Below, in pieces: positions 2,602-12,421 of a stretch of 12,421 nucleotides of DNA. Each line of letters starts with the position of its first letter. Position 1 is the stretch's first letter. The translations under genes were made by a program, and so were the position numbers. Source of the stretch: a virus (taxonomy: Duplodnaviria; Heunggongvirae; Uroviricota; Caudoviricetes); IMG/VR virus record IMGVR_UViG_2728369183_000006; one strand, written 5' to 3'. The notes beneath the pieces are model-generated. The model searched no databases, was not told the origin of the DNA, and was given only the letters and a program-made list of their open reading frames with translations.

Positions 2602-2673
2602 TATTATTTACTCATGTTCTAACTGATTTAATATTTATATCGAACACTGATAATTATTCTATTGGTTAGCTAT

Positions 2674-3012
2674 ATGAACAAAACGATTTTATTCTGCACG
2701 ATTATTGCCTTAACAGGATGTAAGTCTTTGGATTACGTAAAATCCGGAAAACCTGTAATGGAAGGTAATTCATTAAAAAATATTGATGAATTGTCAGGCT
2801 GCATATCCAGACAATGGGCTGGTAATGGAACACCTATAACATCCCTTCCTATTGAGAATGGGGTAAGCCTTTTAGTTCCACAGGCTATGGGGGGATATGA
2901 TGTTGTGCTTGATATCAAAAAAGCAGGAAATGGCAGTAGTTTTACTCTTTATGAACGTGTACCAGCATTAACGCCAAAAATTTTTGCTGATAGTGTTAAT
3001 GCATGTAAATAA
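2674..3012 (+). CDS. Putative outer-membrane lipoprotein, a moron inserted between I and J
   Basis: ORF with the lipoprotein signal MNKTILFCTIIALTG|C (lipobox LTGC; the +2 residue is Lys, not Asp). The longest ORF starts at TTG 2662, but ATG 2674 gives a canonical signal peptide. The segment is markedly AT-rich compared with the flanking tail genes and is followed by an intrinsic terminator. I recognise no homolog. Confidence 0.6.
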   Translation: MNKTILFCTIIALTGCKSLDYVKSGKPVMEGNSLKNIDELSGCISRQWAGNGTPITSLPIENGVSLLVPQAMGGYDVVLDIKKAGNGSSFTLYERVPALTPKIFADSVNACK

Positions 3013-3078: not shown

Positions 3079-6000
3079 ATGGGTAAAGGAAGCAGTAAGG
3101 GGCATACCCCGCGCGAAGCGAGGGACAACCTGAAGTCCACGCAGCTGCTGAGTGTGATCGATGCCATCAGCGAAGGGCCGGTTGAAGGTCCGGTGGNNNN
3201 NNNNNNNNNNNNNNNNNNNNNNNNNNNNNNNNNNNNNNNNNNNNNNNNNNNNNNNNNNNNNNNNNNNNACCGGTGCTGGACAGTGAGGGGAATACTAACA
3301 TCTCTGGTGTCACGGTGGTGTTCCGGGCAGGTGAGCAGGAACAGACACCGCCGGAGGGATTTGAATCATCAGGTTCCGAGACGGTACTGGGTACGGAAGT
3401 GAAATACGACACGCCGATCACCCGGACCATCACGTCGGCAAACATTGACCGACTGCGTTTTACCTTCGGTGTGCAGGCACTGGTGGAAACCACCTCAAAG
3501 GGGGACAGGAATCCGTCGGAAGTTCGCCTGCTGGTTCAGATACAACGTAATGGTGGCTGGGTGACGGAAAAAGACATCACCATTAAGGGCAAAACCACCT
3601 CGCAGTATCTGGCCTCGGTGGTGGTGGGTAACCTGCCGCCGCGCCCGTTCAATATACGGATGCGCAGGATGACGCCGGACAGCACCACAGACCAGCTGCA
3701 GAACAAAACGCTCTGGTCGTCATACACCGAAATCATCGATGTGAAACAGGGCTACCCGAACACGGCACTGGTCGGCGTGCAGGTGGATTCGGAGCAGTTC
3801 GGCAGCCAGCAGGTGAGCCGTAATTATCATCTTCGCGGGCGCATTCTGCAGGTGCCGTCGAACTATAACCCGCAGACGCGNNNNNNNNNNACGGTATCTG
3901 GGACGGGACGTTTAAACCGGCATACAGCAACAACATGGCCTGGTGTCTGTGGGATATGCTGACCCACCCGCGCTACGGCATGGGGAAACGTCTTGGTGCG
4001 GCGGATGTGGACAAATGGGCGCTGTATGTCATCGGCCAGTATTGCGATCAGTCAGTGCCGGATGGCTTTGGTGGCACGGAGCCGCGCATCACCTGTAATG
4101 CCTACCTGACCACACAGCGTAAGGCGTGGGATGTTCTCAGTGATTTCTGCTCGGCGATGCGCTGTATGCCGGTATGGAACGGGCAGACGCTGACGTTCGT
4201 GCAGGACCGACCATCAGATAAGGTGTGGACCTATAACCGCAGTAATGTGGTGATGCCGGATGATGGCGCGCCGTTCCGCTACAGCTTCAGCGCCCTGAAG
4301 GACCGCCATAATGCCGTTGAGGTGAACTGGATTGACCCGAATAACGGCTGGGAGACGGCGACAGAGCTTGTTGAAGATACGCAGGCCATTCTCCGTTACG
4401 GTCGTAACGTCACGAAGATGGATGCCTTTGGCTGTACCAGCCGGGGGCAGGCACACCGCGCCGGGCTGTGGCTGATTAAAACGGAGCTGCTGGAAACGCA
4501 GACCGTGGACTTCAGCGTGGGTGCAGAAGGGCTTCGCCATGTACCGGGCGATGTCATTGAAATCTGTGATGATGACTATGCGGGTATCAGCATCGGCGGG
4601 CGCGTGCTGGCGGTGAACAGCCAGACGCGGACACTGACGCTCGACCGTGAAATCACGCTGCCATCCTCCGGCACCACGCTGATAAGCCTGGTTGACGGAC
4701 AGGGGAATCCGGTCAGCGTGGAGGTCCAGTCCGTCACCGACGGCGTGAAGGTGAAAGTGAGCCGTGTTCCTGACGGCGTTGCTGAATACAGCGTGTGGGG
4801 GCTGAAGCTGCCGACGCTGCGCCAGCGCCTGTTCCGCTGCGTGAGTATCCGTGAGAACGACGACGGCACGTATGCCATCACCGCCGTGCAGCATGTACCG
4901 GAAAAAGAAGCCATCGTGGATAACGGGGCGCACTTTGACGGCGACCAGAGCGGCACGGTGAATGGTGTCACGCCGCCAGCGGTGCAGCACCTGACTGCCG
5001 AAGTCACCGCAGACAGCGGGGAATATCAGGTGCTGGCCCGCTGGGACACGCCGAAGGTGGTGAAGGGCGTGAGCTTCCTGCTCCGTCTGACCGTAACAGC
5101 GGATGACGGCAGTGAGCGGCTGGTCAGCACGGCCCGGACGACGGAAACCACATACCGCTTCAGGCAGCTGGCGCTGGGGAACTACAGGCTGACAGTCAGG
5201 GCGGTAAATGCCTGGGGGCAGCAGGGTGATCCGGCGTCGGTATCATTCCGGATTGCCGCACCGGCAGCACCGTCGCGGATTGAGCTGACGCCGGGCTATT
5301 TTCAGATAACCGCCACGCCGCATCTTGCGGTTTATGATCCGACGGTACAGTTTGAGTTCTGGTTCTCGGAAAAACGGATTGCGGATATCAGGCAGGTTGA
5401 AACCAGCGCGCGTTATCTTGGTACGGCACTGTACTGGATAGCCGCCAGTATCAATATCAAACCGGGCCATGATTATTATTTTTACGTTCGCAGTGTGAAC
5501 ACCGTTGGCAAATCGGCATTCGTGGAGGCTGTCGGTCAGCCGAGTGATGATGCATCAGGCTATCTGGATTTTTTCAAAGGCGAGATAGGGAAAACCCATC
5601 TGGCTCAGGAGCTGTGGACGCAGATTGATAACGGTCAGCTTGCGCCTGACCTGACTGAAATCAGGACGTCCATAACGGATGTCAGCAATGAAATAACACA
5701 GACCGTCAATAAGAAACTGGAAGACCAGAGTGCAGCGATCCAGCAGATACAGAAGGTTCAGGTTGATACAAATAATAACCTGAACAGCATGTGGGCAGTG
5801 AAGCTGCAGCAGATGCAGGACGGACGCCTTTATATTGCGGGTATCGGTGCCGGTATTGAGAACACCCCTGACGGCATGCAGAGTCAGGTGCTGCTGGCAG
5901 CAGACAGGATTGCGATGATTAATCCTGCGAATGGCAACACAAAGCCGATGTTTGTTGGTCAGGGCGATCAGATATTCATGAATGAAGTGTTCCTGAAACG

Positions 6001-6668: not shown

Positions 6669-7268
6669 ATGCGTAAAGTTTGTGCAGCCATTTTGTCCGC
6701 AGCCATCTGTCTGGCCGTATCCGGTGCGCCTGCATGGGCGTCTGAGCAGCAGGCCACACTGAGCGCAGGGTATCTTCATGCCCGTACGAACGCTCCCGGC
6801 AGCGATAATCTGAACGGGATTAACGTGAAATACCGTTATGAGTTTACGGACACGCTGGGGCTGATTACGTCATTCAGTTATGCCAACGCTGAAGATGAGC
6901 AAAAAACGCATTACAGCGATACCCGCTGGCATGAAGATTCCGTGCGTAACCGCTGGTTCAGCGTGATGGCGGGGCCGTCTGTGCGCGTGAATGAATGGTT
7001 CAGCGCGTATGCGATGGCGGGTGTGGCTTACAGCCGTGTGTCGACTTTCTCCGGGGATTATCTGCAGGTGACCGACAATACGGGGAAAACGCACGATGTG
7101 CTGACCGGAAGTGATGACGGTCGCCACAGCAACACGTCTCTGGCGTGGGGGGCTGGCGTGCAGTTTAACCCGACAGAATCCGTGGCCGTTGATGTCGCTT
7201 ATGAAGGCTCCGGCAGCGGTGACTGGCGTACCAACAGTTTCATCGTTGGTGTCGGTTATAAATTCTGA
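6669..7268 (+). CDS. lom: Lom outer-membrane protein (Ail/Lom/OmpX family beta-barrel)
   Basis: 199-aa translation ([26 protein letters not shown]... ...FIVGVGYKF) matches lambda Lom from memory. It has an N-terminal signal peptide, a C-terminal aromatic residue, and GAGAGG-like RBS upstream. Confidence 0.9.
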
Positions 7269-7322: not shown

Positions 7323-7332
7323 TGGGGTGAAT

Positions 7333-10300
7333 ATGGCAGTAAAGATTTCAGGTGTACTGAAAGACGGCACAGGAAAACCGGTACAGAACTGCACAATCCA
7401 GCTGAAAGCAAAACGTAACAGCACCACGGTGGTGGTGAACACGCTGGCCTCAGAAAATCCGGATGAAGCCGGGCGTTACAGCATGGACGTTGAGTACGGT
7501 CAGTACAGCGTTATTCTGTTGGTGGAAGGATTCCCGCCGTCACATGCCGGGACCATCACCGTGTATGAAGATTCCCGACCCGGTACGCTGAATGATTTTC
7601 TCGGTGCCATGACGGAGGATGATGCCCGTCCTGAGGCACTGCGCCGCTTTGAACTGATGGTGGAAGAGGTGGCGCGTAACGCGTCCGCGGTGGCACAGAA
7701 CACGGCAGCCGCGAAGAAATCAGCCAGCGATGCCAGCACATCAGCCCGTGAGGCGGCAACCCGTGCGACTGATGCTGCAGGCTCAGCACGAGCAGCCAGC
7801 ACGTCAGCCGGACAGGCCGCTTCGTCGGCTCAGTCTGCGTCTTCCAGCGCAGGAACGGCATCAGCAAAGGCCACTGAAGCATCAAAAAGTGCTGCCGCTG
7901 CAGAGTCCTCAAAAAGCGCGGCGGCCACCAGTGCCGGTGCGGCGAAAACGTCAGAAACGAATGCGGCAGCGTCACAACAATCAGCTGCCACTTCTGCATC
8001 CACCGCGACCACGAAAGCGTCAGAAGCAGCCACCTCAGCCAGAGATGCGTCGGCTTCAAAAGAGGCGGCAAAATTATCAGAAACGAGCGCAGCCTCGAGC
8101 GCCAGTAATGCCGCTTCCTCGGCAACGGCGGCAGGAAATTCCGCGAAGGCGGCAAAGACGTCTGAGACAAACGCTAAGTCCTCTGAAACGGCAGCAGCAC
8201 AGAGTGCCTCCGCAGCAGCAGGCTCAAAAACAGCGGCTGCGTCGTCTGCCAGTGCAGCGTCAACAAGTGCCGGGCAGGCCTCAGCCAGTGCTAGCGCCGC
8301 CGGAAAATCGGCAGAAAGCGCCGCATCGTCCGCTTCAACAGCCACAACGAAGGCTGGCGAAGCCACTGAACAGGCCAGTGCAGCAGCGAGGTCTGCTTCC
8401 GCAGCGAAGACATCGGAGACGAACGCGAAAGCGTCGGAGACCAGCGCAGAATCCTCAAAAACGGCTGCCGCATCGTCCGCCAGTTCGGCGGCGTCATCGG
8501 CATCATCGGCGTCTGCTTCAAAAGATGAGGCGACCAGACAGGCGTCAGCAGCGAAGGGCAGCGCCACGACAGCATCCGCGAAGGCGACAGAGGCAGCTGG
8601 CAGTGCGACGGCGGCAGCACAGAGCAAAAGTACGGCGGAATCCGCGGCAACGCGCGCCGAGACAGCGGCAAAACGGGCAGAGGATATTGCATCCGCCGTG
8701 GCGCTTGAGGATGCAAGTACGACGAAAAAGGGGATAGTACAGCTCAGCAGTGCGACCAACATCACATCTGAAACGCTTGCCGCGACACCGAAGGCAGTTA
8801 AAGCAGCGAATGACAATGCGAATGGCAGGGTACCATCTAACCGAAAAGTTAACGGGAAAGCACTGACTGCGGATATAACATTAACACCGAAAGATATTGG
8901 CACTTTAAATTCAGTAACGATCTCTTTCTCTGGCGGGGCTGGGTGGTTCAAACTGGCAACGGTTACCATGCCACAAGCGAGTTCCATCGTTTACATCGCA
9001 TTGATTGGTGGCGCTGGTTACAACGTCGGTTCCCCACATCAGGCAGGCATTTCAGAACTGGTTCTACGAGCAGGCAATGGAAACCCCAAAGGAATTACCG
9101 GGGCTTTGTGGAAGCGTACAGCCGTCGGATTAACGAATTTCGCCTGGATCAACACATCCGGCGATACATATGATATTTACGTTGAGATTGGCAATTATGC
9201 GACGAGTGTAAATATCCATTGGGATTGTACTGCAAATGCGTCAGTTTCTATTTATACCTCGCCAACATATTCAGCGAGTAAGCCTTCCAGCGTTACCGGT
9301 GGTGTTGTTTATACGATGTATAGCTCACATCAGAAACCTACACCATCAGATATTGGAGCGCTGCCAACGACTGGAGGGACTATTTCAGGTCCGTTGTCTG
9401 TTACTGATGGGATCACCGGGGCACTGAAGGGGAACGCCGATACCGCGACGAAACTTGCGGCAGCCCCAAAAATTAACGGTGTTAAGTTTGATGGCTCGGC
9501 GGATATTAACCTCACGCCGGAAAATATTGGTGCATTTGCCCGACGTTCGACGGGGGCTTATGCGGATTCGAATGGAGCCGTTCCCTGGAATGCCGAATCA
9601 GGCGCTTACAATGTCGCCCGCTCTGGCGACAGCTATATTCTGGTTAACTTCTATACCGGAGTCGGAAGTTGCCGGACCCTGCAGATGAAGGCGCATTACA
9701 GAAATCGTGGTCTGTTCTACCGTTCTTCAAGAGACGGTTATGGTTTTGAGGAAGACTGGGCAGAAGTTTATACCTCGAAAAATCTTCCACCAGAAAGCTA
9801 CCCAGTTGGCGCACCAATCCCGTGGCCATCAGATACCGTTCCGTCTGGTTATGCCCTGATGCAGGGGCAGACTTTTAACAAATCTGCCTACCCGAAACTT
9901 GCAGCGGCTTATCCGTCAGGCGTGATCCCTGATATGCGTGGCTGGACGATTAAGGGCAAACCCGCCAGTGGCCGGGCCGTATTGTCTCAGGAACAGGACG
10001 GCATAAAATCGCACACCCACAGCGCCAGCGCATCCAGTACGGATTTGGGGACGAAAACCACATCGTCGTTTGATTACGGCACTAAATCCACGAATAACAC
10101 CGGGGCGCATACGCACAGTCTGAGTGGCTCTACGGGGTCTGCCGGTGTTCATACTCATGGTAATGGTATTCGTTGGCCAGGAGGCGGCGGTTCTGCGTTA
10201 GCATTTTATGATGGCGGTGGGTTCACTTATGTCCAGAATTCACAGTATCAAGTAAGCCCGGAGACTTCTTCCTATAGATCGTATTATCAACGTATTCAGA

Positions 10301-10503
10301 CACAGTCAGCAGGTGCTCATACCCACTCGCTGTCTGGTACTGCAGCAAGTTCTGGCGCACATGCACATACTGTAGGTATTGGTGCGCATACGCACTCCGT
10401 TGCGATTGGTTCACATGGACACACCATCACCGTTAACGCTGCGGGTAACGCGGAAAACACCGTCAAAAACATCGCATTTAACTATATTGTGAGGCTTGCA
10501 TAA
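7333..10503 (+). CDS. stf: Side tail fibre protein Stf (long form, about 1056 aa)
   Basis: N-terminus [37 protein letters not shown] and C-terminus ...[31 protein letters not shown] match lambda Stf from memory. ATG 7333 is preferred over the GTG at 7327. It contains an Ala/Ser-rich repetitive shaft, [22 protein letters not shown]-type fibre repeats and His-rich HxH motifs. Confidence 0.88.
7680..8720 (+). repeat. GC-rich Ala/Ser/Thr low-complexity coding repeats within stf
   Basis: Reiterated AAKTSETNA-type units recur at about 7943, 8152 and 8404 with differing synonymous codons. The region produces long spurious ORFs in other frames on both strands. Confidence 0.6.
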
Positions 10504-11087
10504 TGGCATTCAGAATGAGTGAACAAGCACGGACCATAAAAATTTATAATCTGCTGGCCGGAACTAATGAATTTATTGGTGAAGGTGACGCATATATTCC
10601 GCCTCATACAGGTCTGCCAGCAAACAGTACCGATATTGCACCACCAGATATTCCTGCTGGCTTTGTGGCTGTTTTCAACAGTGATGAGGCATCGTGGCAT
10701 CTCGTTGAAGACCATCGGGGGAAAACGGTTTATGACGTAGCGTCAGGGGACGAGTTATTTATTTCTGAACTCGGTCCGTTACCGGAAAATGTTACCTGGT
10801 TATCGCCGGAAGGGGAGTTTCAGAAGTGGAACGGCACAGCCTGGGTGAAGGATACGGAAGCAGAAAAACTGTTCCGGATCCGGGAGGCGGAAGAAACAAA
10901 AAACAACCTGATGCAGGTAGCCAGTGAGCATATTGCGCCGCTTCAGGATGCTGCAGATCTGGAAATTGCAACGGAGGAAGAAACCTCATTGCTGGAAGCC
11001 TGGAAAAAGTATCGGGTGTTGCTGAACCGTGTTGATACATCAACTGCACCTGATATTGAGTGGCCTACGAACCCTGTCAGGGAGTAA
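10503..11087 (+). CDS. tfa: Tail fibre assembly protein Tfa
   Basis: 194-aa translation ([54 protein letters not shown]...) matches lambda Tfa from memory. Its ATG overlaps the stf stop (TAATG at 10501-10505). Confidence 0.9.
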
Positions 11088-11137
11088 TCATTGGGATTAT
11101 GCCGCAGCACGTCTTAAGCAAGAACGTGCTGCGGTTG
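10922..11137 (+). repeat. Direct repeat copy A: tfa 3' end plus downstream hairpin
   Basis: About 216 bp that align by eye with 11971-12186 at roughly 85-90% identity. No computed alignment was made. Confidence 0.7.
11102..11134. terminator. Hairpin between convergent tfa and methyltransferase genes, a possible bidirectional terminator
   Basis: Stem ccgcagcacg (11102-11111) pairs with cgtgctgcgg (11125-11134) around a 13-nt loop. A T-run follows at 11145-11150, overlapping the methyltransferase stop. Confidence 0.45.
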
Positions 11138-11141
11138 GATG

Positions 11142-11810
11142 CTATTTTTTCCCTGAAGCGGAAAACATTACTACAGTACCTTGAACCTTGGTTTTAACAT
11201 TCTCGAAATGCTCTGAGAGTATATGTGTTAAGCCTTCTTCGGAATCTTTTGTGTTTGAAAAGATGCCTTTCTGATTGTAAATGCGCATCAGTTTTTGACC
11301 GAAGCTATTGTGCACAACTCCATCGCCAAGAATTGTGGCTCCGTATAGAGTTCCATCGTCAGTTAAGGCCTGCGCCGCATTGCGTATTACACAGCTTTTT
11401 GTAGATATATTTCCAGGCAGGCAGTGAAGAAGGTAAAACATGGAAATGGAATCAAATTGACCATGTAACGCCGCGGGATAAGGTTCAAAAACATCATGGC
11501 TAATTTTATGTTTAATTTTTGATTCCCCAGCCCTTGTAGATGCCGCGTTCAGGCTAGCTTCGTTCAAATCCATTAAAGATATCAGACTACTCTCAGGTAC
11601 GTGAGTAAGGTAAAACCCAGTTCCAACACCAATATCCAGATGGTTGTTACCTACATGTTCCAGAAAGTGTGGAAGAAGGTGTTCCTTTGTAGGACATCCC
11701 CATGCAAGCCGATTTGATACTCCCAAAACCCACCAGTCATAAAGCTTTAGGGTAAGTGGTGTGTAAATTTTAGCCCCATCATCTGTGTTTTTTTTCATTG
11801 ATTTCACCAT
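11142..11810 (-). CDS. Class I SAM-dependent methyltransferase, unknown substrate (accessory cargo gene)
   Basis: Minus-strand ORF of 222 aa. An alternative start at 11798 (MKKNTDDG...) has a GGTGA-like RBS. Rossmann motif I is present (HLDIGVGTGFY), with an acidic residue after beta2 (SLMD) and a FDSISMFYLLHCLP-type motif. No DPPY/NPPY motif is visible, so a DNA N6/N4-methyltransferase seems unlikely. The segment is AT-rich. Confidence 0.7.
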   Translation of the reverse strand: MVKSMKKNTDDGAKIYTPLTLKLYDWWVLGVSNRLAWGCPTKEHLLPHFLEHVGNNHLDIGVGTGFYLTHVPESSLISLMDLNEASLNAASTRAGESKIKHKISHDVFEPYPAALHGQFDSISMFYLLHCLPGNISTKSCVIRNAAQALTDDGTLYGATILGDGVVHNSFGQKLMRIYNQKGIFSNTKDSEEGLTHILSEHFENVKTKVQGTVVMFSASGKK

Positions 11811-11866
11811 GTTATAGTTTTATTTGTGAATTAAATCAATTATGGCGATGAATTACAAGGGGTTAA

Positions 11867-12136
11867 ATGCTGCCGCAGCATAGCGATATTGAAATAGCCT
11901 GGTATGCTTCGATACAGCAGGAGCCGAATGGCTGGAAGACCGTCACCACACAGTTCTACATCCAGGAATTCAGTGAGTATATTGCGCCACTGCAGGATGC
12001 TGTAGATCTGGAAATCGCAACGGAGGAAGAAAGATCGTTGCTGGAGGCATGGAATAAATATCGGGTATTGTTGAATCGTGTTGATACATCAACTGCACCT
12101 GATATTGAGTGGCCTGCAAACCCTGTCAGGGAGTAA
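11867..12136 (+). CDS. Tfa-like ORF (89 aa): novel 36-aa N-terminus fused to a conserved Tfa C-terminal domain; possibly a functional mini-Tfa or a remnant
   Basis: The C-terminal 54 aa ([54 protein letters not shown]) differ from the tfa C-terminus at only about 5 positions. An AAGGGG RBS lies 4 nt upstream of the ATG. Confidence 0.5.
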
Positions 12137-12186
12137 TCATTGGGATTATGCCGCAGACACGTCGTATGCAGGAACGTGCTGCGGTT
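11971..12186 (+). repeat. Direct repeat copy B: tfa-like 3' end plus downstream hairpin
   Basis: Aligns by eye with 10922-11137. It includes an imperfect copy of the hairpin (ccgcagacacgt...acgtgctgcgg at 12151-12184). Confidence 0.7.
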
Positions 12187-12250
12187 AGTTTGTGAGCTTT
12201 CGATAGTGGTTGTTATTTTTGCCCTTATTTGTTCCGGAGGCCATGGTTCA

Positions 12251-12421
12251 ATGGTCCGTCTGCCCCCTGTGGTGATGTCAGCAAAATCAGCCACTGCGCG
12301 AACCACAATAGCCCGGGAAGATGCTGAAGATCACCAGGTAAAGCTGTCAGCGCAGAAACTGGAAGAACTGCTCGCATCAATGGTTAAGGATGAGGTTGAT
12401 CGCAATGATGGGATTTATTGA
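12251..12421 (+). CDS. Small hypothetical protein (56 aa) ending exactly at the window edge
   Basis: ATG at 12251 is preceded by GGAGG (12236-12240) and an AT-rich stretch with a weak TTGTGA-N17/18-TATTTT promoter-like pattern (12190-12219). The translation MVRLPPVVMSAKSATARTTIAREDAEDHQVKLSAQKLEELLASMVKDEVDRNDGIY is hydrophilic and charged. I recognise no homolog. Confidence 0.35.
   Translation: MVRLPPVVMSAKSATARTTIAREDAEDHQVKLSAQKLEELLASMVKDEVDRNDGIY

Follow-up and report, generated by a model that had tools for sequence, protein, structure and literature searches.

The ybcY-tfaX prophage cargo module is located behind the tail-fibre genes of the window analysed here, a stretch of 12,421 nucleotides of phage DNA. 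The module is common and already annotated in the DLP12 prophage of E. coli K-12, and the locus is for this reason an ordinary case of phage mosaicism. It appears to have arisen by non-homologous fusion of a divergent methyltransferase/X gene pair to the tail fibre assembly gene tfa, and to have spread by homologous recombination in its arms. A probability of about 0.78 is given to this reading. In the literature searched for ybcY and tfaX, only list-type mentions, an RpoD SELEX table and papers on the tfaX/appY spacer were retrieved. Searches joining tail fiber assembly, methyltransferase, moron and prophage returned nothing relevant, and no paper was found that uses 'exchangeable effector loci' together with the module terms.

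Direct repeats of the tfa 3′ end

On the plus strand, the side tail fibre gene stf (7327-10503; Pfam phage_tail_N, Collar and Phage_fiber), annotated at the identical locus L001 as 'prophage tail fiber N-terminal domain-containing protein', forms the upstream context of a full-length tfa gene (10503-11087, plus strand, 194 aa; Pfam Caudo_TAP, E 1.9e-44). The tfa product is identical to WP_000885577.1 and shares 94% amino acid identity with lambda orf-194. In full-length or near-full-length comparisons it is constrained at the protein level (pN/pS 0.13-0.17). A G+C-rich stem-loop (hairpin 1, 11101-11135) lies between the convergent tfa and methyltransferase genes and folds on both strands (-25.6 kcal/mol, z -3.6, on the plus strand; -23 kcal/mol, z -6.3, on the minus strand). 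A T-run follows it on the plus strand only, and none on the methyltransferase strand. Hairpin 1 is probably a bidirectional terminator.

The original prediction held, from an estimate by eye, that 10922-11137 recurs at 11971-12186 in the same orientation with 85-90% identity, and both coordinates and estimate were accurate. In a repeat search of the window, direct repeats were obtained at 10911-11107 and 11960-12156 (197 nt, 89%, 21 mismatches) and at 11108-11136 and 12158-12186 (29 nt, 90%, also direct), the two blocks being parted by a 1-nt indel. When the window was aligned with itself by blastn, a single 227-nt HSP of 89.0% identity was seen. Copy 1 (10911-11137, plus strand) thus comprises the last 177 nt of tfa and the terminator hairpin, and copy 2 (11960-12186, plus strand) a tfa-derived 3′ segment and hairpin 2 (12150-12185). 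On analysis at the nucleotide level, the tfa-derived sequence of copy 2 truly begins at about 11970. The length and identity of the repeat exclude chance as its cause.

As had been proposed, a minus-strand methyltransferase ORF (11142-11810), confirmed by Pfam matches, and an AT-rich spacer (11811-11866) lie between the copies. The unique cassette core (11138-11969) contains the methyltransferase gene, the spacer and the first ~34 codons of a gene referred to as X. Its GC content is 41%, compared with 27% in the spacer and 48% in tfa. To the right of copy 2, the flank that is common with cassette-less sites (12187-12421, plus strand) carries a further tail-fibre/DUF4376-type pseudogene remnant, which at L001 (7834-8103) is a PGAP pseudogene, 'DUF4376 domain-containing protein, internal stop'. 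Residues 34-93 of the ORF at 12140-12421 match phrog_1141 and phrog_7703. The same flank was found in L020-L022 and L040-L043, and beyond the window it is followed by an ompW fragment and then by yciE-trp, at the prophage end.

A duplicated Tfa C-terminal coding sequence beside a tail-fibre gene recalls the invertible G, C and P segments of Mu, P1 and e14, and gene X is found near a Pin-type DNA invertase gene in HK225 and vB_EcoS-716R3. The repeats could on these grounds be taken for a programmed tail-fibre switch worked by a site-specific recombinase. However, they are direct and not inverted, and no alternative fibre C-terminus lies ahead of copy 2. The crossover-site sequence of the invertases was unmatched in the window even with 3 mismatches, and no recombinase ORF is present between the repeats or downstream to the prophage end. 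An invertible segment of the Gin/Cin/Pin type is contradicted by repeat orientation and gene content, and switching of this kind is highly improbable here.

The methyltransferase and the divergent spacer

The 222-aa ORF on the minus strand encodes a YbcY-family class I SAM-dependent methyltransferase (Pfam Methyltransf_12/23/25/11). Residues 5-222 match phrog_2132, and the true start is probably Met5, at 11798. The protein has 98.6% amino acid identity with K-12 ybcY over 216 residues, and the annotation of PhiR26_1 names its copy YbcY. Since Escherichia-only substitutions were too few for dN/dS to be informative, both for this gene and for the N-terminal part of the neighbouring ORF89, more distant relatives (61-90% identity) were used for the methyltransferase. 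The pN/pS values of 0.19-0.29 indicate purifying selection on a gene that is very widespread and conserved.

The AF2 model of the protein (pLDDT 89) was compared with the PDB by Foldseek. The best 50 matches listed were small-molecule, lipid, natural-product or unassigned SAM-dependent methyltransferases with TM scores of ~0.55-0.65; they were only generic class I small-molecule enzymes, and no particular substrate was singled out. NCBIfam gave sub-threshold matches only (CpaM, RquA, PmtA), and a sequence search of the PDB gave weak matches to JHAMT and UbiG (E ~1e-3). From fold and family the enzyme is predicted to be of the small-molecule or lipid type. A DNA methyltransferase, whether of a restriction-modification system or an orphan, was considered and rejected: the (D/N/S)PP(Y/F/W) or PC motif is absent from the translation, which was read directly, and the Foldseek and Pfam matches are to other types. 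When the locus was searched with the PADLOC defence models, just mad2 was returned (12.9 bits, E 0.009), with no passing stretch.

In the spacer (11811-11866), promoter-like hexamers can be read for both divergent genes, and they abut both start codons. The sequence TTGATT-17-TATAAC at 11811-11839 on the minus strand has the same hexamers as listed for K-12 ybcY, and an alternative -35/-10 pair occupies 11866-11839. In a scan with the promoter consensus, promoter-like sites were no commoner than in shuffled sequence. The K-12 hexamers are given in an RpoD genomic SELEX table, in which the K-12 spacer bound RpoD holoenzyme and was marked HNS (PMC3946193). The promoter assignment rests on these K-12 data, which are of low resolution, together with the consensus hexamers. 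Transcription of the methyltransferase gene probably starts at a sigma-70 promoter of its own within the spacer and ends at the shared hairpin.

ORF89 and the X::tfa junction

The ORF divergent from the methyltransferase (ORF89; 11867-12136, plus strand, 89 aa) is TfaX-like and falls in phrog_2341. Its codons 1 to ~34 (11867 to ~11969) are derived from gene X, residues 3-37 matching phrog_3893, and the remainder (~11970-12136) is the Tfa C-terminal domain. Nucleotide mapping placed the in-frame X::tfa junction at ~11968-11971. Pfam Caudo_TAP covers residues 31-86 only, corresponding to profile positions 75-130/131, and Caudo_TAP_N is not matched. ORF89 thus lacks the N-terminal plus Caudo_TAP architecture of a full-length Tfa, its N-terminus being derived from X, and the earlier suggestion that a second Tfa C-terminal module was left behind as a remnant agrees with this partial match. 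Intact X is an 80-aa protein in Citrobacter L031 (phrog_3893, E 7.6e-38) and is also found in phage HK225, beside tfa and DinI, and in many other phages. The left junction of the cassette is the foot of the tfa terminator hairpin.

The same X::tfa junction is common to every E. coli copy, an indication that one non-homologous event founded them all. A search of 5,426 complete E. coli genomes yielded no methyltransferase gene beside an intact X; the matches stop at the same point. Of 800 homologues, the best 120 listed included no full-length Tfa with the N-terminus of ORF89, and all those of near-full coverage were 82-142 aa long.

The second copy might instead be retained for its protein, a functional, selected mini-Tfa that acts as a chaperone or regulator of fibre assembly. 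The reading frame is open in the window and in an 83%-identical P2-type variant, ORF89 has a PHROG family of its own (88 aa), a Shine-Dalgarno-like GGGG was read directly ahead of its ATG, and the C-terminal part has a pN/pS of 0.06-0.24. However, low values are expected there if the variation was imported from functional tfa genes by recombination, and the N-terminal part shows 2 synonymous and 5 non-synonymous changes in the only within-Escherichia comparison that has substitutions. The N-terminal part of Tfa, reportedly its fibre-binding domain, is missing. Copies differ widely at the C-terminus or are truncated there (82, 101, 108 and 142 aa, and 61 aa in K-12); several genomes have the ORF flagged as pseudogene or frameshifted by PGAP, and in Nissle it is deleted. 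A selected mini-Tfa is thus quite unlikely, and ORF89 most probably arose as a by-product of the fusion and has no function. For annotation, this would mean that short TfaX-type 'tail fiber assembly proteins' are better treated as scars of X::Tfa fusion than as chaperones.

Matches to the Rfam family RF02111 (IS009) raise the alternative that the repeat unit is a duplicated small-RNA gene conserved for RNA function. By cmscan, 10846-11044 scored 225 bits (gathering score 117) and 11890-12093 scored 112.5 bits (E 1.3e-26), the latter falling under the gathering score. Yet on the coding strand the matches fall entirely within the tfa reading frame, which is also the case in K-12 tfaD, lambda orf-194 and L022, and tfa shows constraint at the protein level. 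In copy 2 the match begins with ~80 nt that derive from X and not from tfa, and that copy folds no better than shuffled sequences (z +0.58, compared with -2.25 for copy 1). A duplicated RNA gene is very improbable, and IS009 matches appear to indicate 3′-terminal tfa coding sequence.

Direct repeats around a foreign segment of lower GC could also be produced by a transposition-like or integrase-mediated insertion that duplicates its target. A duplication of ~220 bp, however, far exceeds the usual target-site duplications, and the copies differ by 11%. The core and its ends are devoid of transposase, integrase and terminal inverted repeat, and the right junction falls within the truncated gene X and not at the end of an element. 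An insertion of this type is exceedingly improbable.

Occurrence of the module and mosaicism of its arms

The core was detected at an identity of at least 95% in 3,844 of the 5,426 complete E. coli genomes, in up to 4 copies per genome and ~4,900 copies overall. The module is found behind Stf/Tfa of lambdoid prophages at ompW, in DLP12 at argU and also at potB. The cargo had been assigned to lambdoid phages, but the module is also carried by Nesevirus 2G7b/IAI39 and, behind tail-fibre and Tfa genes, by P2-like elements at smpB. In Citrobacter (L031/L032) the core occurs alone (window 11130-11953, 92%) and the tfa arms are absent.

The core keeps 98-100% identity whether its context is lambdoid, Nesevirus or P2-like, the arms are 48-99% and 70-83% identical, and the outer flanks are unrelated (~35-45%). 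In one comparison pS was 0.014 for the core, 0.28 for Tfa and 0.38 for the C-terminal part of ORF89. Homology breakpoints cluster within the arms, which are patchworks of tfa alleles. From patterns at diagnostic sites, the right end of copy 1 (~11067-11137) travels with the cassette; copy 2 is mosaic among loci from ~12091 rightwards.

The methyltransferase was predicted to be accessory cargo, and collinear prophages that lack it exactly were found at the same ompW/trp attachment site. Comparison of related prophages for 11138-11970 recovered both states between the same flanks: an uninterrupted cassette-less junction in 20 genomes, whose flanks are identical, and the cassette in ~410. At cassette-less sites the single copy is of copy-1 type up to 11027/11069 and of copy-2 type beyond. 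These sites may represent the ancestral state or a secondary deletion, both being compatible with the sequences.

The module fits the 'mosaic plus HR trace' pattern defined by De Paepe et al. (2014), a segment of >90% identity with flanks of lower identity that is still above background (PMC3945230). The same authors reported that lambda takes markers from the stf/tfa regions of Rac and Qin via diverged homology at ~2e-6 (PMC3945230). Their mosaics have a >98% identical segment between flanks of lower but clear homology (70-93%), as in the module. In contrast to those mosaics, the two flanking homologies of the module are copies of one sequence in direct orientation, and loop-out and re-insertion are additionally permitted for this reason.

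The original prediction attributed the locus to recombination between tfa genes. The sequences support such recombination as an explanation for transfer of the module between phages, given the 98-100% identical core and the mosaic arms. They do not support it as the source of the duplication, since the X::tfa join is non-homologous; homologous exchange between two tfa genes did not make the second copy.

Proposed origin and transfer

In the favoured reading, the ancestral core would be an ordinary divergent accessory pair, a class I SAM methyltransferase gene and the small gene X, which Citrobacter still has in intact form. A single non-homologous join in an Escherichia phage, at a few bases of microhomology, may then have put the middle of the Tfa C-terminal domain in frame behind codon ~34 of X, and the 3′ end of the methyltransferase gene would have been brought against the terminator hairpin of a tfa gene. 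The outcome would be a core between two direct ~220-nt copies of the tfa 3′ end and hairpin. The X::tfa and hairpin junctions are present in the sequence; we infer the single founding event from them, and the arrangement could equally have been founded in two separate steps or by an insertion with a long duplication.

Since temperate phages that are otherwise unrelated share a conserved C-terminal region of Tfa, the arms offer homology for relaxed homologous recombination, which may be of the phage Red/RecT type or RecA-dependent. Recombination in the arms could bring the core to lambdoid, Nesevirus or P2-like phages at their tfa loci, replace parts of the arms by the tfa alleles already resident there, or remove the core again when one arm recombines with the other. 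The pattern of conserved core and patchwork arms is evident in the sequences, and this mechanism of spread is suggested by analogy with the experimental precedent of lambda with Rac and Qin. A bolder proposal is that ybcY is a homology-guided hitchhiker, which would loop out and re-insert behind any Caudo_TAP-type tfa of siphoviruses and myoviruses and owe its 71% prevalence in E. coli to a lipid or small-molecule modification that helps the lysogen or the phage. This extended form is speculative and rather unlikely.

Comparison with known loci

The tfaD-ybcY-tfaX genes of DLP12 in K-12 MG1655 (b0561-b0563) have the gene order and strands of the window, with 96.9% nucleotide identity over window positions 10649-12113, and the X::tfa junction and spacer hexamers are shared. 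The DLP12 locus differs in that ybcY is a pseudogene (indel), tfaD is 5′-truncated and the annotated tfaX measures 61 aa. On the right, DLP12 continues into appY-ompT at argU and the window into the DUF4376 remnant at ompW. In the HK225-type region (tail fibre, tfa and minus-strand DinI, divergent from plus-strand X, invertase and attP), X and a divergent spacer also lie directly downstream of tfa. There, unlike in the window, X is intact, no methyltransferase is present and tfa is not duplicated.

Morons and exchangeable accessory loci are reportedly found downstream of tail-fibre genes in lambdoid prophages. The cassette resembles morons in being an extra gene between conserved neighbours, with lower GC, a promoter-like spacer and a terminator-like hairpin; presence or absence between collinear phages and a base composition unlike that of the neighbours were both found here. 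In position, the accessory region directly downstream of tfa is equivalent to the lambda b region at its left end (tfa/orf-194, hairpin, ea47), in which a minus-strand accessory gene directly follows the same tfa terminator hairpin. Lambda is similar to the cassette-less state, although the sequence after its hairpin is ea47 and not the DUF4376 remnant. A second copy of the hairpin, missed by the repeat search, was located past ea47 by alignment. The lambda cargo gene is unrelated, and its repeat consists of the hairpin only (~35-60 nt), without tfa coding sequence. Accessory genes of enterobacterial prophages seem to be joined repeatedly at the conserved Tfa C-terminal region and its terminator hairpin. 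In other strains, the slot after the tail-fibre genes holds ipaH-like and katN-yciEFG-like cargo.

Organization of the tfa-distal region and the direct repeat

The window contains the right end of a lambda-like prophage, including J, lom (6669-7268), stf (7327-10503) and tfa (10503-11087). A minus-strand ORF of 222 aa (11142-11810) follows, encoding a class I SAM methyltransferase (Pfam Methyltransf_12/23/25/11). A 56-nt spacer of 27% GC separates it from a plus-strand ORF of 89 aa (ORF89; 11867-12136), which starts between the repeat copies and whose residues 31-86 match Caudo_TAP, limited to the last 56 profile positions. The original prediction placed the methyltransferase gene as cargo between diverged direct repeats of the tfa 3′ end, and the repeat was confirmed. 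A repeat search aligned 10911-11107 with 11960-12156 (89% identity over 197 nt) and, offset by a 1-nt indel, 11108-11136 with 12158-12186 (90%), both in direct orientation; blastn returned the entire repeat as a single HSP of 227 nt at 89.0%. Copy 1 comprises the final 177 nt of tfa, followed by a stem-loop of high stability (11101-11135; -25.6 kcal/mol, z -3.6; z -6.3 for the opposite strand).

An invertible tail-fibre segment is excluded, as the repeats are direct, an invertase crossover-site sequence had no match, and no recombinase ORF lies between the repeats or downstream to the prophage end. Insertion by transposition is without support: transposase, integrase and terminal inverted repeats are all absent, and target-site duplications are far shorter than the 220 bp duplicated here. 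Rfam RF02111 (IS009) matched the 3′ part of tfa at 10846-11044 (+; 225 bits, above the gathering score) and the second copy at 11890-12093 (+; 112.5 bits, just under it), and also matches inside K-12 tfaD, lambda orf-194 and the tfa of a cassette-less site (L022). At every locus tested the matches fall within the tfa reading frame in sense orientation, so IS009 hits are markers of tfa. The RNA reading was rejected; no RNA structure common to both matching copies was shown.

The locus is the ybcY-tfaX module of E. coli

The segment 10400-12421 is 100% identical in E. coli AR_0017 and several further strains, where the prophage ends a few hundred bases beyond the window at an ompW fragment adjoining yciE-yciF-trpA. 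At least 80% of its length is collinear in 1,113 of the 5,426 complete E. coli genomes. The unique interior (11138-11959) occurs in 3,844 of them, always at 95% identity or higher and in as many as four copies per genome. The gene arrangement recurs in DLP12, a cryptic prophage of E. coli K-12 MG1655, as tfaD, ybcY (minus strand, a pseudogene) and tfaX, with 96.9% identity to 10649-12113, and the annotation of phage PhiR26_1 names the methyltransferase 'YbcY'. Thus, the locus is a common accessory module and its cargo has already been described, at least as annotation. It fits well-known kinds, the moron in its presence or absence among collinear prophages and its base composition, and the mosaic with recombination traces. 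In the literature searched, no paper treating the methyltransferase cargo as a cassette was found, and neither the chimeric structure of TfaX nor a function for YbcY appears to be documented there.

Occupied and cassette-less sites

Collinear prophages were compared, as the original prediction had proposed, and cassette-less sites with the same flanks were found. A synthetic cassette-less query, joined through the repeat, aligned in one piece with three genomes (99.0-99.3% identity). These prophages share the ompW site, stf, tfa, the DUF4376-type pseudogene and the ompW fragment, and lack the methyltransferase. With a 600-nt junction query, built so that occupied sites stay below 80% coverage, 20 cassette-less genomes were retrieved (94-100% identity); in about 410 genomes the two flanks enclose the cassette. 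Lambda and seven sampled empty sites have one tfa 3′ end each, of copy-1 type through 11027 and of copy-2 type from 11067 on (from 11107 in L022). As the L022 Tfa protein has the same accession as that of the exact-match locus, L022 is a good candidate, by sequence, for a site that lost the cassette secondarily when its arms recombined; empty sites of greater divergence may represent the ancestral state.

The sequence to the right of the cassette (12140-12421, +, running past the window end) is another remnant related to tail fibres, the third here, which PGAP annotates as a DUF4376 pseudogene interrupted by an internal stop. Within its ORF, residues 34-93 resemble phrog_1141 (tail fibre protein) and phrog_7703, and the remnant is common to occupied and empty sites.

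TfaX is a fusion of gene X to tfa

ORF89 falls into its own PHROGs family, phrog_2341 (88 aa), and its residues 3-37 additionally match a different 79-aa family, phrog_3893. All homologues with near-full coverage among the best 120 listed by score are short (82-142 aa), and none of these 120 is a Tfa of normal length with the ORF89 N-terminus. Two Citrobacter freundii loci carry a 90%-identical methyltransferase; their nucleotide homology is limited to 11130-11953 (92%), with tfa sequence absent from both sides. Divergent from their methyltransferase gene lies an intact 80-aa gene, X, a full-length member of phrog_3893 (E 7.6e-38), whose first ~34 residues form the ORF89 N-terminus. X thus accounts for the double PHROG match.

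Base-by-base comparison of the right junction showed X homology to ~11968 and tfa homology from ~11970, joined in frame at a short stretch matching both. At the left junction, similarity to the core of Citrobacter starts at ~11131-11137, by the base of the tfa hairpin stem. A query of the Citrobacter methyltransferase 5′ end plus complete X gave 4,887 matching places in E. coli, of which none reached 80% coverage, so that no genome with intact X was found; the 15 matches listed all stop at the X::tfa fusion point. Most simply, all Escherichia copies would descend from an ancestor in which a single non-homologous event founded the module. That event could, for example, have been an illegitimate crossover between X of a phage with the order tfa-hairpin-methyltransferase-X and tfa of a second phage or sister genome. 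The founding may also have taken two separate steps.

Intact X is present in many enterobacterial siphophages. The gene order is tail fibre, tfa, DinI (minus) and X (plus) in HK225, and DinI, methyltransferase and X (opposite strand) in Citrobacter. Intact X repeatedly adjoins DinI (Citrobacter locus L031, 3307-3606 and 4745-4996; locus L038, 3165-3452), Citrobacter X also adjoins an ORF resembling UmuD/LexA by eye, and X carries the label 'DNA polymerase V' in some phage records. The gene may be part of an SOS-related set of accessory genes.

Low pN/pS in the C-part of ORF89 would suit a functional mini-Tfa, but import from functional tfa genes explains it. The N-terminal part of normal Tfa is absent, the C-termini are variable or frameshifted among copies and the gene is lost in Nissle, making a mini-Tfa unlikely.

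Probable shuffling of the module through the tfa-derived arms

The module is found in Stf/Tfa lambdoid prophages at ompW (E. coli, E. albertii), in DLP12-type remnants at argU (including Nissle, where tfaX was lost) and in a remnant adjoining potB. It also occurs in Nesevirus 2G7b and strain IAI39, with different fibre genes and only the last 120 nt of the left tfa, and in P2-like myovirus elements at smpB, after baseplate J/I, a tail-fibre gene and a 194-aa Tfa. Across these contexts the core is 98-100% identical, copy 1 48-99% and copy 2 70-83%, and the outer flanks are unrelated. Synonymous divergence between the window and the P2-type copy is 0.014 for the methyltransferase, 0.28 for Tfa and 0.38 for the Tfa-derived part of ORF89. 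Homology breakpoints on the left (10875, 10967/10971, 11096/11102) and right (11893, 12091, 12113, 12208) lie mostly inside or adjoining the arms. Diagnostic sites show two arm segments moving together with the core, namely copy 1 at its hairpin-1 end and copy 2 near the junction, and the distal arm parts are patchworks of tfa alleles.

De Paepe et al. 2014 (PMC3945230) described this pattern as a 'mosaic with traces of homologous recombination', and in their experiment lambda acquired Rac/Qin stf/tfa-region markers via diverged homology at ~2×10⁻⁶. The module was probably formed by one non-homologous fusion and later shuffled among temperate phages via its tfa-derived arms. Of the original prediction, the accessory cargo, the Tfa remnant and recombination at tfa are supported; the duplication itself, attributed there to recombination between tfa genes, probably originated in the non-homologous X::tfa fusion.

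In O157-type strains a katN-yciEFG-like block is inserted between tfa and hairpin 1. In E. coli ERL06-2497 (L024, 1156-3958) four genes, for a manganese catalase, two ferritin-like proteins (yciE/yciF-type) and a general stress protein, are located upstream of the module, after the tfa stop codon and before hairpin 1; the slot after tfa has therefore gathered further cargo. In Shigella-type genomes the left arm is replaced by an ipaH-like LRR gene and an IS element. In three such loci, from Shigella flexneri and Shigella-like E. coli (L007/L009/L010, 6985-8913), the ipaH-like gene (LRR_TTSS domain) and a DDE transposase gene stand directly 3′ of the methyltransferase gene in place of that arm. 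The lambda b region has a second post-tfa hairpin beyond ea47 (L003 5287-5345, lambda ~24161-24219; window 12150-12208), with a 35-nt stem-loop identical to window hairpin 2. Thus ea47, too, is bracketed by two copies of the element, and accessory genes may have been joined repeatedly at the post-tfa hairpin.

The methyltransferase and its putative promoter

The methyltransferase family is widespread in Enterobacterales (56-90% identity), with chromosomal or island-borne members in Enterobacter, Salmonella and Citrobacter; all sources name it only 'class I SAM-dependent methyltransferase'. Purifying selection acts on the gene (pN/pS 0.19-0.29). Its start is likely at 11798, since alignments to homologues and phrog_2132 begin at Met5. 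The AlphaFold2 model is confident (pLDDT 89). Its best PDB neighbours (TM ~0.55-0.65, 12-21% identity) are phosphatidylethanolamine/phosphoethanolamine N-methyltransferases, juvenile-hormone acid methyltransferase, NodS and natural-product O- and C-methyltransferases. The sequence shows no motif of DNA methyltransferases, none of the 50 best PDB matches listed is a DNA methyltransferase, and a comparison with defence-system models gave no significant match. Together these comparisons suggest, with low confidence, a small molecule or lipid as substrate.

On the methyltransferase strand, the spacer contains TTGATT-17-TATAAC (11811-11839), with hexamers identical to those given for K-12 ybcY in genomic SELEX with RpoD holoenzyme, where the ybcY/tfaX spacer is a divergent promoter site marked HNS (PMC3946193). 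Its assignment as the methyltransferase promoter is tentative because the hexamers abut the start codons and consensus promoter scans showed no enrichment over shuffled sequence.

Other features of the window

A plus-strand ORF of 116 aa (2662-3012), with a lipoprotein-like signal (MNKTILFCTIIALTGCKS...) and a match to phrog_914 (unknown function), sits after the ORF 1960-2601 and ahead of the J-type tail-tip gene and is probably an additional moron. Runs of unknown residues in translations at ~740-880, 3195-3270 and 3885-3896, presumably masked bases, break the ORFs called there (e.g. 566-964, 3079-3402, 3273-3962). Long overlapping ORFs in several frames and antisense at 7700-8990 (both strands), within the Ala/Ser-rich repeats of stf, appear to be artefacts of composition, not genes.
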